The notes beneath the pieces were generated by a model, which was not told the origin of the DNA, searched no databases, and worked only from the letters and a program-made list of their open reading frames with translations. The position numbers were made by a program, and so were the translations under genes. Shown here piece after piece: positions 5,801 through 59,259 of a stretch of 64,000 nt of DNA; within the stretch, counting starts at the first letter, position 1, and every line of letters begins with the position of its first letter. The stretch is taken from contig OX597833.1 of assembly GCA_951406725.2 (NCBI GenBank), positions 12,648,001 to 12,712,000 on the forward strand, in the 5' to 3' direction. This DNA is from Octopus vulgaris. Its lineage: Eukaryota.

Positions 5801-7016
5801 GTGAATATAAACTCTATTTACAATTTTGTCTAAACTCATCATCATTATTACTGTTACCATCGTTGACATTATCACTGGAGTAAGAAGTGTTCATGGATAC
5901 AATCTGCTTCGAATCACTGCAGTCCCTGAAATGACATGTCTGTCCACTAAAAGAACACAACACTTTAGAATTACATCTTTAAATATAAAAGAGAGGTTGT
6001 GTGCTGTCTGTCTCCTACGATTTAGATTCCTAACTACTCCCACATTTTGCGGTGCAGTTTAATCAAAACCGGGTATCTTATAGTCGTGATTCATATCGAG
6101 CCCTTCTGGGTATTAGCGCGCGTCTACAATGAGTCTACGATTTAAAAAAAAAATTACCATCAATTTTTTCCCATTTTTAATGCATTTTTGGCATATATAA
6201 GGGAAGTAACTCTCTAAAAATTTATTATTAAATCTCAGAACGTAAAAAGGGCGCACACTCTCCTACCCTGATGTAATCTCCAGGGATACAGGCATCCAGC
6301 ATTAGGACCTCCGTAATGCTATGATGGACCGTGAAGTCTGGCGTAGCATGGTAAATTCCATTGTCTCAACCACGGTCGAACAATGATGATGATGATGATC
6401 CTAAACCAGATAAAGCATGGTAAACTCTAGTAGGGAATTCTTTTTTTCTGTATTTAGTTACCTGAGCCATAATTCTACTCAAGCTGATGATTACAGTTAA
6501 TCAACAATAACAACAGAGATTATTACGAATTTAACACATTTTATACTGTCCAATGGAAGTATAAAAATCTGAAAAGTTTATGAGTTTAGTGTACAGCTTC
6601 CCTTATTTTCTACATCAGTGTTTCACCATCCATGCTTTCAGAACAATAATTGCAATATTTGACTTGTTTTAGATATATGTTGCATTAATATAAACACTTC
6701 AATAGTGCCCCTACTATCCTACAAGTGATGAATAAACTCTTTCTTTATCTAAATTAAATCTTTTAAGGATTGTTTCTTTTATTGCTTATGCATACAGGGG
6801 TGGGCTAAGTGTCTCAATCCAGAGGAAATTTGTCTTGTGTATGTGTGTGCACGGTGTGTTTATATATATATATATATATTATATTAAATTAGAGACAAAA
6901 CCACTATTATGCAAATCAAACAAAGATTTATTCCCTAATATTTATTATTATATATATATATATATATATATATGTATCAAATGAAATAAATGAAAAACAC
7001 AACACAAAGGATGTTG

Positions 7017-7107
7017 CAGTACATATGTTTCGAGCTTTATAGAACAACTTATTCTTACATCAATGCATAATCGACACAACAGATAGTTCAAAAGCCCTCT
7101 TCAGCCG
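7017..7107 (-). ncRNA. Type I hammerhead ribozyme motif (PLE-type)
   Basis: minus strand CGG-CTGAAGA-GGGCTTT...AAAGCTC-GAAA-CATATG-TA-CTG: 7-bp helix II, palindromic helix III, GUA triplet, short helix I. Confidence 0.72.
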
Positions 7108-8413
7108 TGTACTATTGCTACACCAAAGACTTGTATCACATTATGAAAGGTTTGTGAAAAAACATTTGGTATTGTTTATAATGGTAGGTAAACTGAGTAT
7201 CACTGGGAAAGTATGTTTGTAAATCTTCATAGGCGTACATGGTATTATTTTCTCACTCCCATCTAAGAATTGTTGTTTAGGCTGAGATGTTTGGTGAGTT
7301 GTTCATAGGTCCATATTTGTTTGGCATTAATATAACAGACATAACTTACATCCATGTTACATTTCTAAATTAGATGTCATTCTTTTGTTAGAATAACATA
7401 AGATATTGTTCTAATGAGATAGGCCTCCACTACATTTTAATATAAGTGCTAGAAGTTATATTGATGACACCACCCCAGGTAGGTGAAATAGAGGAAGAGT
7501 CCAATTGAATAACCACTAGATCTCTAGGACTAACAACTCTTAATTTTTTTTATCTCTTGTGTGCGATCATTGAAGTTGGTTGTCTTCATGATTTGATCCA
7601 GAATTATTGATACACTGAAGGAGATAATCAAATCTACCAGGGACAGCAAATACCTTAAAATGGGTTCAAAGTTCATGCACTCAATAGAGTCAAAAATGCT
7701 GAAGGTTATCAGTTTTAGCACACATTTTGTAATTTATGATTTTTAAAGTACTTAGGTTCCCTTTTTATGGATGTAGATTTTTAGACCAACCTCTATGTGT
7801 TTTGTGTATGTATGTGTGTATCCATGTGTGTGTGTGTGTGTGCACTCATTTATTTGCAGCTAAGCTTTTACACTATTGCTACTTTAAATTTCTTATTTCC
7901 TTTCTTCGGTGTCTGGAAATAGAGTGAAATCTCAGCTTCAAATGATTGAATAAATCCAACTTCTATGCATATTTATACACATACAAACTTGCATTATATG
8001 TGTGTTTGTGTTAGTGTGTGTGTGCATGTATTTATGAATATACAAACCTACATTTCATATATATATATACACATTTCATATATATATACATTTTATATAT
8101 ATATGCCTTTACCTTCGAAACACGCATTGAGTCGAACCAGGGGCAGCTGATGAAGGGGAATTTTTCTTGTATTGTTTGCCCTGTACTCTGTTTTTTCGTT
8201 GTTTTAAAAAAAGTCCGTTTCCTTGTTTGATTTTATGTTTTCATCTCTCGTTGTGTTCTACGTTTATTTGTGGTGTCCTGTACTCATATATATGTATATG
8301 TATGTATATATACATGTAGATGTAAGTATGTACATATATGTATATATGCATATATTTTATTTATTTATTATATATATATATATATATATATATATACTTT
8401 GATCTCTATTAAG

Positions 8414-8601
8414 GTTTACCTGATGAGAAAGGCAGAGTGGACATTTTGAAAATCCACACTAAGTCAATGAGAGAAAGTAAACTGCTTCATGACGAAGTTA
8501 ACCTCAAAGAAATTGCAAGTAAAACAAAGAACTTTAGTGGAGCTGAACTCGAAGGTCTTGTACGCTGTGCAGTTTCCACTGCTATGAACAGTTTAATAAA
8601 G
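8414..8601 (+). CDS. NSF: NSF exon (D1 lid)
   Basis: taAG|GT TTA CCT...AAG|GTaat; [15 protein letters not shown]...[26 protein letters not shown]. Confidence 0.96.
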
Positions 8602-9125
8602 GTAATTCAGAAGATGTTTCATGTTCTAAATTTACATTATTTTACAATATTGGGTCAGATTTCTCACTATTTAGGCAGAAGATTAACAATGTTGAGGGGA
8701 AGGATTTAGTTGATTAAATCAATCCCGTACTTGACTTAGAGAAGTAACACAAGCAGGCCAATGGCATAAATTTAAATAAATAGGTGAATGGTTGATGTAC
8801 TGAATGGCACGCAAAAGATTCTCAATTAAAATATTCGTCCTGAAGAATTGATTACAACTCTCAAAAGAGTGGGAGATAATTTCATAATTGCATGCAGGCT
8901 CGTGTGAATAAGTCTTACTTATGAGGTTCAGTAAGAATTATCTCCCCTCTTCAATGAAGACCTTAGATCATCACTAGTGTTTTATTTTATTTTTTTCCCT
9001 TCTTCAATTAAAAGAGAAACTCATTGAGAATTCTGTTGCATCCTTCTGTACATCTCCCCTTATTTTATCTATATAACATAAGTAATTTCCCTTCGCTGTT
9101 TTATTTTATTTTTTTTAATAGAATT

Positions 9126-56709: not shown

Positions 56710-57085
56710 ACTAGCAGTATCGCTCGGGTTTGTTTCGACCCTTTAGAATTGGAATTTTTGAAAAGTAAAAATTTTGCATTATGTAGCTTGTTATTCTCTA
56801 TAAGTGCACATTTTTCTGGTTGAAATACACCGTAAAATGGCGACACAGCAGTCAAAAGATCGTAAAAAATAGGGATTTTCATAGAAAAAAAAGCACCTTT
56901 TTGATGTAAATAATTTTTGGTGTTAACATGGTCCAATTTGAATTTTTTTCTTCTACGGAATGAAGAGCAAGCCTTCTTCTATCATACTCTCAATTTTGGT
57001 CAACTTGCGCCGCAGGGTCTCGGAGGAGATAGTGTTAGTTGAAGGCTACTAAACTTGCTATACACAGACAACTTTAGCTTTATAT
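56710..57085 (-). mobile_element. Non-autonomous Helitron-like element (same family as 47130-47522)
   Basis: reverse-complement match along its length; CTAG 3' end. Confidence 0.75.
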
Positions 57086-57212
57086 ATATATATATATATA
57101 TATATATATATATATATATATAGTTAATCCAAACAAGAAAGCACAAAAAAACACAACAACGCGAGGACGTGGAACAAATATAGTATTATTGGACACTCAG
57201 GAAAGAAGGAGG

Positions 57213-57247
57213 GTTTAACGTTTCGAGTGGAGCTCTTCGTCGGAAAC
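57213..57247 (-). ncRNA. Minimal hammerhead variant (U4C core)
   Basis: minus strand GTTT-CCGACGA-AGAG-CTCCA-CTC-GAAAC-GTT-AAAC, palindromic AACGTT helix III, inside a (TA)n-flanked element 57123-57311. Confidence 0.5.
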
Positions 57248-59259
57248 ATAGGAGAAGGGAAGACAGAGGAAAAAAAAAATCGCCAACGGTACACACAAGG
57301 TCACATTTTGAATATATATATATAGTCGTTTAGCTTTGTTAAAATGTAATCATGTATTCACGATTCTTTCCTGCAGTTGATATATGTAATATAACTTATT
57401 ACAAATTAATATCATAGAAATTTTAAAGTAGCAGGTTAACTAATGCCAATATGCACACATCTGAAATAACTTTTCCAACTTTTCTCTAACTAGTTTTTCA
57501 GTGATGTCTTCTACGTAATAAAACACGCAGAAAGGGAAAGAAAAATGCTGCTTAAGTATTAGAAGATTCCATCTTTTTAGACTTGTAAATAAATTTAAAC
57601 GATTAAACCACACAAATAGTACTAATCTTTTATGAATACAGTTAAGTTACAATAGTTGTAAAGCTGAGCTCTTGACACACTTTAAATAGATTTTAGACAC
57701 TAAAATAGAACTCGGATGAGAAAACTTGTTTAATGTGAAGGTAACGAGATAATCTAAATACAGGGACATCTCCTTTCCTAGTTAGAAAGAAAAAGAATAT
57801 ATTATATCTATAAAAGGCAATCTCACTTTAAAATTTTATTTTTCATGTTTTTGTGTGTAATTTGAACTTGTATAATTAAAATTTGTGATTTTTTAAAAAC
57901 TGCTAATATTTTCAGTTTGATAATGAAAAAGATGTTCAAGTAAAAATATTTGTAATAGTGCCGGTGGCACATAAGAGGACCATCCGAATGTAGCCGTTGC
58001 CAGCGCCACCCTGACTGGCCTCCGTGCCAATGGCATGGAAAAAGCACCATCCGATCGTGGCCGTTTGCCAGTCTCGTCTGGTAACTGTGCCGGTGGCACG
58101 TAAAAAGCATCCACTACACTCAAGGAGTGGTTGGCGTTAGGAAGGGCATCCAGCCGTAGAAACATTGCCAGATCAGACTGGGCCTGGTGCAGCCTTCTGG
58201 CTTCCCAGACCCCAGTTGAACCGTCCAACCCATGCTAGCATGGAAAGCGGACGCTAAACGACGATGATTCACATTTCTAGTCATTGCCATCTTGTTTCAC
58301 TTTGTGTCTCAGTTGCCTTCTTGGAAAACATTTCTGAATTAACTAGTGTTTTATCTTTGATCAGGAAGGAGATATGACTTAAGGTAACAATTATATGAAA
58401 GACATCCTTGACTGCATTCCAAAAAGGGCCACCTAACTGATTGTCATAAAATCACTTACAAACTCTATGCTCCAGCCTTTGGTTCACAAACCCGGTCAGC
58501 TTTCTTTGCCTTTTCTGCAGCTACAATAGCCTTCTTTGGAGTAGGCTAGGTGCATGCCATCTCCACTCAAGCGTTCCCAACCCATTTGTAATCCTAGTAC
58601 CCAGCTCCTAGGTCTCACATTAATCACCGTGACCAGTTTTTTGCCTTCCCACAACATTAGCCCTTTAGAACTTTTCACCTGCTCATATCCTTCTCACAAG
58701 TGGAACATATAATATCAATCTTATTGATCTCAGAAGGCCTGCAAAGGCCTTGGGCACTGCTCCTTCTGTTAGGCCTATCAAGTAAAATAAATAGTTTTGA
58801 CCAAGACATTTAGAGATATGCTGTGCTTGAGAAGATCCAGCAAGCCAAGTGAGATTGTAGCTTTAGCCTATGCCAGTGCCACATAATGGGCCCATTTAAG
58901 AGTTCTCTTCAATTGTCAGGCAATATGTTTTGCTTGAGAAGACCTATTGAATCGAGTAAAATCGCTGTTGTGGCCGATGCCAGTACCTATTTCTTTATTA
59001 CCCACAAGGGGCTAAACACAGAGGGGACAAACAAGGACAGACATAGGTATTAAGTCGATTACATAGACCCCAGTGCGTAACTGGTACTTAATTTATCGAC
59101 CCCAAAAAGATGAAAGGCAAAGTCGACCTCGGCGGAATTTGAACTCACAACGTAACGACAGACGAAATACGGCTACGCATTTCGCCCAGCATGCTAACGC
59201 TTCTGCCAGCTCGGATGCCAGTACCACCTGACTGGCACCCATGCTGGTGGCATGTATTG

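Follow-up and report, generated by a model that had tools for sequence, protein, structure and literature searches.

Penelope-like elements (PLEs) leave inverted, 5′-truncated copies with tails of 30-40 bp, and those of the Hydra and Naiad clades, both already described from Octopus, target (TA)n (PMC8557442; this and the other papers cited were available in part, and statements about them refer to those parts). In a lizard PLE studied in vitro, the protein nicks both strands of AT-rich DNA, reverse transcription starts at two RNA sites, of which one takes in the tail and the other lies at its TA-rich boundary, and the template is mostly uncleaved RNA (PMC11167929). A short stem III is a trait of PLE hammerheads that act as dimers (PMC4209133). 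For hammerhead ribozymes in general, PMC10085705 distinguishes six strand orders, and in its available text Penelope appears only in the title of a reference; the available parts of two studies of animal retrozymes (PMC7229834 and bioRxiv 10.64898/2026.07.22.740005) do not mention octopus. In this study, we focus on a 64,000-nt stretch of the Octopus vulgaris genome (contig OX597833.1, positions 12,648,001 to 12,712,000, hereafter the window), where short inserts with inverted-repeat arms, many of them bearing hammerhead motifs, lie in or beside (TA)n tracts. We put the probability at roughly 0.85 that these inserts are 5′-truncated 3′ end stubs of about seven PLE groups, with Hydra-type and Naiad-type elements probably among them.

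Architecture of the foldback inserts

A preliminary description of the window, made from its letters, had listed 12 foldback inserts, which are named here by their listed start positions (Table 1). Inverted-repeat arms were found in 12/12, and the unique one-sided tail that the inserts were said to have "usually" is present as an extension of about 32-148 nt in 11; in insert 11521, whose left end abuts a repeat resembling a short interspersed nuclear element (SINE), no such extension is visible. Three tails measure 32-41 nt and eight 66-148 nt. Placement next to (TA)n also held up: across 16 inserts (the 12 listed and four relatives), 28 of 32 ends lie within 12 nt of a (TA)≥4 run, against 3.6% of window positions, a count that is partly circular in that ends were placed at tracts, and the four exceptional ends abut other repeats. 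A TA target-site duplication (TSD) would be invisible within (TA)n, and PMC8557442 describes TSD detection as likewise limited for PLEs inserted there.

The absence of ends of the terminal inverted repeat (TIR) type is borne out by one-sided tails, by non-foldback members, by family F1 running on upstream and by variable centres; the combination of fixed ends and differing centres among members of a family argues against TIR elements. Several groups can indeed be told apart, but "a dozen" distinct families was an overstatement. About seven groups are recognized, namely F1 (16628, 55845 and the intact 22136), F2 (34028 and the intact 22372), F4 (35596, 35887), an F3 group (33388, 49931, 22665, 49644), F5 (15893 and the longer 8104), 16140, and 11521, and three of them have a non-foldback relative within the window. 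The placement of 22665 and 49644 in the F3 group is supported by z values of 4.6-6.2 (0/200 shuffles); for 11521 as a further member, shared short words gave no support.

Together, the inverted 5′-truncated pair, the one-sided tail, the hammerhead near the axis and the (TA)n target match published PLEs. The inverted truncated copy is found in 12/12 inserts and the tail in 11/12, with a boundary that is fixed in F1; the type I hammerhead is found in F1, F2, 11521 and 23524, and in part in F4 and 16140. F1 combines the (TA)n target with the canonical hammerhead of the Hydra clade. PLE membership is argued from this architecture, since no reverse transcriptase (RT) or GIY-YIG gene is linked to the inserts. 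The expectation that such inserts are probably unannotated is doubtful, as PMC13282606 lists 190 Penelope-like families making up 6.83% of O. vulgaris.

Table 1. Inserts associated with (TA)n tracts in the window, with their inverted arms and main features.
Insert	Position	Strand	Arms	Features
F1 foldback (16628)	16629..16816	+	16617-16681/16694-16759	tail-less minus-strand arm with full hammerhead 16688-16650
F1 foldback (55845)	55844..56005	+	55846-55891/55894-55939	axis in stem II/loop II; 66-nt tail; arms 46/46 identical
F1 non-foldback member (22136)	22136..22318	+		53 nt upstream, hammerhead 22183-22233, arm segment, about 66-nt tail
F2 foldback (34028)	34027..34338	+	34175-34258/34259-34345	148-nt one-sided extension; axis at TGCA palindrome in stem II
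F2 member (22372)	22372..22641	+		type I hammerhead intact (core 22516-22588), with 5+10 bp in stem I
F3-group foldback (22665)	22666..22915	+	22660-22747/22752-22841	74-nt tail; no hammerhead found
F3-group foldback (33388)	33388..33676	+	33388-33472/33496-33580	96-nt tail; no hammerhead found
F3-group foldback (49644)	49642..49892	+	49721-49748/49750-49777, plus 19-nt outer pair	96-nt tail; no hammerhead found
F3-group foldback (49931)	49933..50148	-	50029-50086/50091-50148	92% like 33388, centre differs; no hammerhead found
F4 foldback (35596)	35599..35871	+	35591-35710/35720-35839	core 35719-35751; 5′ strand of stem I lost at axis; 32-nt tail
F4-related foldback (35887)	35885..36155	+	35886-35934/36075-36123, plus 35982-36077	tail as in 35599..35871; hammerhead 3′ half at 36059
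F5 foldback (15893)	15854..16122	+	15895-15932/16088-16125, 38 nt only	41-nt inverted tail, 38-nt inverted arm and tail-less 190-nt 3′ piece
F5 non-foldback member, Naiad-type end (8104)	8104..8368	+		GAAA 8117-8120, CTGATGA 8147-8153
Foldback (16140)	16142..16475	+	16135-16230/16240-16335	hammerhead 3′ half 16246-16257; 140-nt tail
Foldback (11521)	11516..11955	+	11516-11726/11792-11963	full hammerhead in right arm 11811-11859; mutated copy in left arm
Non-foldback insert (23524)	23524..23782	+		between (TA)n tracts; type I hammerhead core 23613-23676
Non-foldback insert (57123)	57123..57311	-		minimal-hammerhead-like motif 57243-57217, one core change

Family F1

The three F1 copies have their right end and tail in common, while their left parts or centres all differ. 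The intact member 22136 carries a type I hammerhead (core 22189-22227) with a U.U at the base of stem II. In 16629..16816, the second arm bears the tail, begins at stem II and is joined to the first via a 2-nt microhomology. Public sequencing runs yielded 1835 F1 records in one DNA run, 83 contigs in a run guessed to be RNA (which are not proof of F1 transcription), 3 raw reads in another run and 0 in a fourth, also a DNA run; in metagenome contigs the F1 motif had 0 matches. The wider stretch 20200-22318 is partly present in 20 of 24 listed public runs from 13 studies. In the DNA run, (TA)n follows directly after 22250 in 12 contigs and after 22247 in one; 22250 also corresponds to the end of the tail-less arm in both 16628 and 55845. 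Upstream, consistent sequence precedes 22140-22143 in 8+2 public contigs, so insert 22136 is itself 5′-truncated; this extension, of which the window holds no copy, reads like the end of a candidate open reading frame (ORF). Depth is highest in the arm segment, at about 1.6 million, and falls to about 0.35 million upstream; it is also reduced towards the end of the tail. These values are subject to edge effects and do not measure copy number. Pile-ups of read ends were not seen in the F1 records.

Variants present in at least 2% of the records of the hammerhead (22183-22233) occupy five positions, which are N7, three in loop II and one in loop III; all five thus fall among the 13 free positions (N7, loop II, loop III) of 51 (P=5.5e-4). 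The predicted minimum-energy structure of the F1 region is a three-way junction, with a stability not above that of shuffles. The tail of insert 16140 (16449) has a 12-mer that recurs immediately ahead of the F1 hammerhead (22171), possibly by chance.

Type I hammerheads in the window

All hammerhead words quoted in the preliminary description occur at their given positions. A type I descriptor identifies eight cores in the window, five of them with a stem I of at least 4 bp; shuffled sequences contain on average 0.02 of the latter, and none of 100 reached five. Only two of these five lie inside listed inserts (11811 on the plus and 16688 on the minus strand), and the other three (22189, 22516 and 23613) belong to non-foldback inserts that had not been listed. 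Many inserts had been said to hold a hammerhead, or its 3′ half, at the axis, which is true of 7/12: a full core is present in 11521, 16628 and 35596 (the last without the 5′ strand of stem I), and the 3′ half in 16140, 34028, 35887 and 55845. The sequence of stem I varies between families yet stays paired (F1: C-G, T-A, T-A, C-G; F2: C-G, T-A, T.G, T-A; 23613: G-C, T-A, T-A, C-G; 11811: G-C, C-G, T.G, A-T), with a short, mostly palindromic stem III throughout. Among the 150 of 177 Rfam matches listed, one is a hammerhead (23607-23682, 25.4 bits, below the 34-bit cut-off). Further candidates are weaker. A possible U3/A8 or decayed core at 36036 in 35885..36155 (two found, 0.98 in shuffles) and the minimal motif at 57243 (one found, 0.35 in shuffles) are not above chance when taken alone, and CTGANGA matches at 26262 and 30371, without stem I, were taken as chance.

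Several results weigh against the assignment to PLEs or against parts of it. No hammerhead was found in five of the 12 inserts (15893, 22665, 33388, 49644 and 49931), three of four intact hammerhead regions fold no better than shuffles, and compensatory change was not seen within F1 in public contigs, nor was a strand-change joint in F1 records of public runs. Eight of 11 tails are longer than the published 30-40 nt. A Pfam scan of 149 of the 217 window ORFs of at least 62 aa, which left out SINE-like and overlapping frames, found no PLE RT or GIY-YIG domain, only RT and apurinic/apyrimidinic (AP) endonuclease of a long interspersed nuclear element (LINE). By eye and by motif searches, no window family matches the 3′ ends of Hydra-1_Obim, Naiad_Obim and Naiad_Ovul printed in PMC8557442 beyond the F5 motif discussed below. 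Lastly, the model of joining set out in the next section draws on three inserts, only one of which has an intact relative.

The best-surviving alternative, though an unlikely one, is that the inserts are non-autonomous units with fixed ends, such as solo pseudo-long terminal repeats or retrozyme-like monomers, moved by PLE proteins; the preliminary description had similarly spoken of mini-elements and of retrozyme-like families. In accordance with such units, 22372 and 23524 are hammerhead units of 260-270 nt between (TA)n tracts, the left ends of 22372 and 34028 agree within 6 nt, animal retrozymes have been proposed to be PLE derivatives, and no ORF was reached here. However, no tandem unit occurs among the window matches, no circular-type joint was found in the public F1 records, and the inserts look like truncation stubs, as F1 runs on 5′ of 22140. 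The likeness between 22372 and 34028 also drops from 77/103 to 15/42 ahead of stem I, as would be expected if the left part of 22372..22641 is an inverted tail, the reading given here to its left 97 nt.

Proposed joining of the two copies

In the mechanism that we propose for PLE stubs, element RNA would give rise to two DNA copies that enter (TA)n head to head. By analogy with PMC11167929, both target strands would be nicked and reverse transcription would start from two RNA sites; as these sites bound the tail, priming from the two target ends would yield one arm with a tail and one without. Synthesis of both copies would end prematurely, in most cases within or close to the ribozyme; the two would then be joined by microhomology, short palindromes or ribozyme helices, and repair after joining would leave patchwork arms. 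The stubs themselves would be dead ends without a function of their own.

The junction of insert 34028 is the most informative. Its left arm is a patchwork, with a natural 5′ strand of stem I at about 34218-34241; in the middle of the arm, AGGTTCCTT is a 9-mer also present in the intact 22372, in the 5′ strand of its stem I, against 5 shared by a mirrored right arm of 34028. Between the two arms, seven transitions allow G.U pairing on the sense strand and none do so the other way, and where CUGAUGA would be expected the strand is instead a mirror of the one bearing GAAA. In insert 16140, seven of eight arm mismatches fall within the innermost 23 of some 89 nt, the part in which stems I and II are expected, and five are G.U-compatible; there is no intact relative for comparison. 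The junction of 55845 can be read as stem II itself. It thus seems that the junction uses the ribozyme's own helices at 34028, and probably also at 16140 and 55845. We infer that two cDNAs anneal via ribozyme helices or microhomology and are then repaired in patches. Helix-guided joining of the cDNAs would account for the clustering of inversion axes at the hammerhead. A literature search found no paper on helix-guided joining of PLE cDNAs.

Template switching at a later time is an alternative origin of the patchwork arms. More broadly, the mirror arms could be post-insertional, produced by template switching across ribozyme hairpins in replication, or partly assembly artefacts: the patchwork at 34028 and 16140 could reflect quasi-palindrome correction, the arms of 55845 are identical, and the public F1 records lack a strand-change joint, as noted above. 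Tail-less arms nevertheless stop at the same point, specific to the family, beyond which independent contigs continue into (TA)n, most arm pairs differ between their two arms, and the same layout is published for PLEs of other animals, which leaves this explanation slightly less credible than fixed-end units. Microsatellite-targeting miniature inverted-repeat transposable elements (MITEs) exist, and TA duplications of MITEs or other TIR DNA transposons could be hidden in (TA)n, with four F3-group inserts lacking hammerheads and the remaining hammerhead words put down to chance, but the one-sided tails, variable centres, non-foldback members, five hammerheads against 0.02 and F1 variants that avoid the ribozyme core make this reading highly improbable overall and refute it for F1 and F2.

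A predicted rearranged hammerhead in Naiad-type ends

The non-foldback F5 member at 8104 is a single copy that retains only the later motif blocks, with GAAA (8117) preceding CTGATGA (8147). A remnant of the 3′ strand of stem I (8104-8110) pairs with 8139-8145, and therefore the copy would begin 1 nt past the predicted cut. Read as a type II hammerhead, 8104 lacks a stem III partner downstream. In the foldback member 15854..16122, the truncation lies downstream of the ribozyme motif. The F5 14-mer GGGGCAGCTGATGA, ending in CTGATGA, occurs in the available supplement of PMC8557442 only in the ends of Naiad_Obim and Naiad_Ovul; a TCGAAAC upstream of the 14-mer is also shared, a likeness found by eye and post hoc, and the rest differs. 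These Octopus Naiad ends are marked 'HHR_half_core' in PMC8557442, which reports a canonical hammerhead as absent.

Reading by eye, we predict that Naiad ends hold a full four-helix hammerhead that is permuted in a non-circular manner. The helices of the Octopus Naiads would be GACACC/GGTGTC (II), ATGGT/ACCAT (III), CTGCCC/GGGCAG (I) and CGGAT/ATCCG (the fourth). In the same order, a Naiad in supplement part 12 has GGCCCC/GGGGCC, TGGGT/ACCTG, GAGGAG/TTCCTC and CTGCTATG/CATAGCAG, and one in part 19 has GACGCC/GGCGTC, a 10-bp stem III, GGAAGG/TCTTCC and CGGGA/TCCCG; the Acropora Naiads show the same fold, which makes four lineages in all, with differing letters. Among 12 non-coding Naiad CTGATGA passages in the supplement, seven fit the four-helix fold (four lineages), two fit partly, including Naiad_Esco, whose stem II is not clear, and three do not fit.

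A pattern scan of metagenome and viral contigs gave at least 122 matches, to which a filter of at least 4 pairs in stem I and at least 3 in stem III was applied. Among the matches listed, 24 passed; 23 of these are one repeat, which by eye is like Acropora Naiad ends, and a stem II partner of at least 5 lies upstream in 17/24 and downstream in 0/24. Decayed versions of this repeat and coding sequence from bacteria are among the 98 that failed, as are all three matches in viral contigs. When 28 metagenome copies were aligned, 94.1% of cells were paired, compared with 27-44% when slid, although the core and part of stems II and III are fixed by the search pattern itself. The pair next to the cut (C-G 14, U-A 11) is one compensatory pair, representing one event. 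In the coral Naiad motif (L043:2623-2765, L008:3471-3613 and related loci), pairing of columns 5-9 with 92-96 (95% paired) adds a fifth short helix around the whole. The truncated metagenome copies showed no ORF upstream of the motif, Rfam gave no hammerhead in three Naiad-motif loci, and a literature search reaching few subscription papers found none linking Naiads to a permuted hammerhead.

That the predicted rearranged Naiad hammerhead is both active and undescribed has, in our judgement, about even odds. The chances are similarly balanced for the joint account, in which an active Naiad hammerhead, conserved from coral to octopus, would have the order stem II 5′ strand, cleavage block, GAAA block and CUGAUGA block, all held together by a fourth helix, and a break would separate A9 from stem II; copy 8104 would begin at the cut and cleaved RNA would have been its template, and type I helices would guide cDNA joining.

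Genomic surroundings

Several inserts sit in introns of an NSF-like AAA ATPase gene, the exons of which span 5686-20571 (Pfam matches at 5686, 8413, 14472 and 20275). An intronless ISCA2-like gene lies at 53966-54481, and its protein (54011-54478) clusters at 90% with proteins of Octopus sinensis and O. bimaculoides; a single-exon gene for an RRM protein, also found in public Octopus clusters, occupies 47651-47947. On the minus strand, 42978-46955 holds a frameshifted LINE of nearly full length, in which Pfam identifies AP endonuclease and RT and which has an upstream ORF; 41186-41521 is a second LINE 3′ piece.

Other repeats are also present. The tail-less arm of insert 49931 is broken by a TIR element (50149-50358) whose TIRs match at 13/15 nt and which is flanked by an 8-bp duplication with two mismatches, features that we take to be hAT-like. 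A small insert between TA runs (16502-16598) has a 17-nt inverted pair and no ribozyme motif. Outside (TA)n, a 282-nt near-perfect palindrome (9126-9407, 130/137) without a hammerhead is probably another element class. Two 360-nt repeats beside (TA)n (47143-47504 and 56710-57080) are 95% identical, with a partial copy at 470-551; their ends presumably recall Helitron/Helentron types. Shorter repeats beside TA runs include a 43-nt pair (6880-6922 and 56449-56491, 93%) and a 49-nt pair (23104-23214 and 27920-27968, 94%), the latter a possible element end. Longer inverted pairs at 20975-21677, 53418-53844, 2254-2907 and 15173-15439 resemble opposed repeat copies, which we assume to be SINEs.

Implications

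The foldbacks are most likely a known sort of PLE debris, of which these inserts are new members, and they are useful mainly for annotation of the octopus genome and as a record of insertion intermediates. Uncleaved RNA is the main template in vitro (PMC11167929), and patchwork arms would lend the PLE hammerhead a structural part in the junction. Should the Naiad fold prove to cleave, Naiads would no longer be the stated exception in lacking hammerheads, a strand order outside the six of PMC10085705 would be added, and a permuted ribozyme would be placed in abundant animal transposons.

Comparison with known systems

The window inserts resemble insertions of endonuclease-bearing (EN+) PLEs (PMC8557442, PMC3846280 and PMC11167929) in the head-to-head truncated copy, the one-sided tail, the AT-rich target, the palindrome or microhomology at the junction and the hammerhead near the 3′ end. 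They differ in that they are very short stubs in which no ORF is seen, most with tails longer than 30-40 nt, and the arms of 34028 and 16140, unlike published PLE insertions, retain natural ribozyme strands. With respect to the Hydra clade (PMC8557442), the F1 core CTGANGA-T...T-GAAA is found in 14 of 25 File S2 families by our own count, stem III of F1 likewise starts with ACAG/CTGT, and the U.U at the base of stem II occurs in most Hydra-clade PLEs, although it is not diagnostic because an axolotl retrozyme also has it. The printed 3′ end of Hydra-1_Obim is not that of F1, and motifs of the F1 upstream end, F2, F3 and F4 had 0 relevant matches in the available supplement, where line breaks may hide some. 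Proteins of the Hydra clade are marked by DKT, RWK and CxCX5C motifs and the absence of CCHH, those of the Naiad clade by an N-terminal GIY-YIG, CxC, DKA and a C-terminal RT.

Animal non-LTR retrozymes (PMC7229834 and bioRxiv 10.64898/2026.07.22.740005) are similar to the inserts in their length of 150-450 nt, low GC content, type I hammerhead and non-coding nature, but they are tandem repeats giving circular RNA, whereas the window inserts are single, inverted and tailed. F5 differs from Naiad_Obim and Naiad_Ovul in its spacing (18 versus 15 nt) and in its longer, different 3′ end, and the Naiad fold itself is not described in the available text of PMC8557442. The closest counterpart of that predicted fold is the type-SGC hammerhead (PMC10085705), which has the same order of cleavage, GAAA and CUGAnGA blocks, strands of stem I and stem II connected by a short linker, and a fourth helix that would join these two stems. 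In the Naiad motif, unlike type SGC, the 5′ strand of stem II does not come straight after CUGAUGA but ahead of the cleavage block, which breaks 'block C'.

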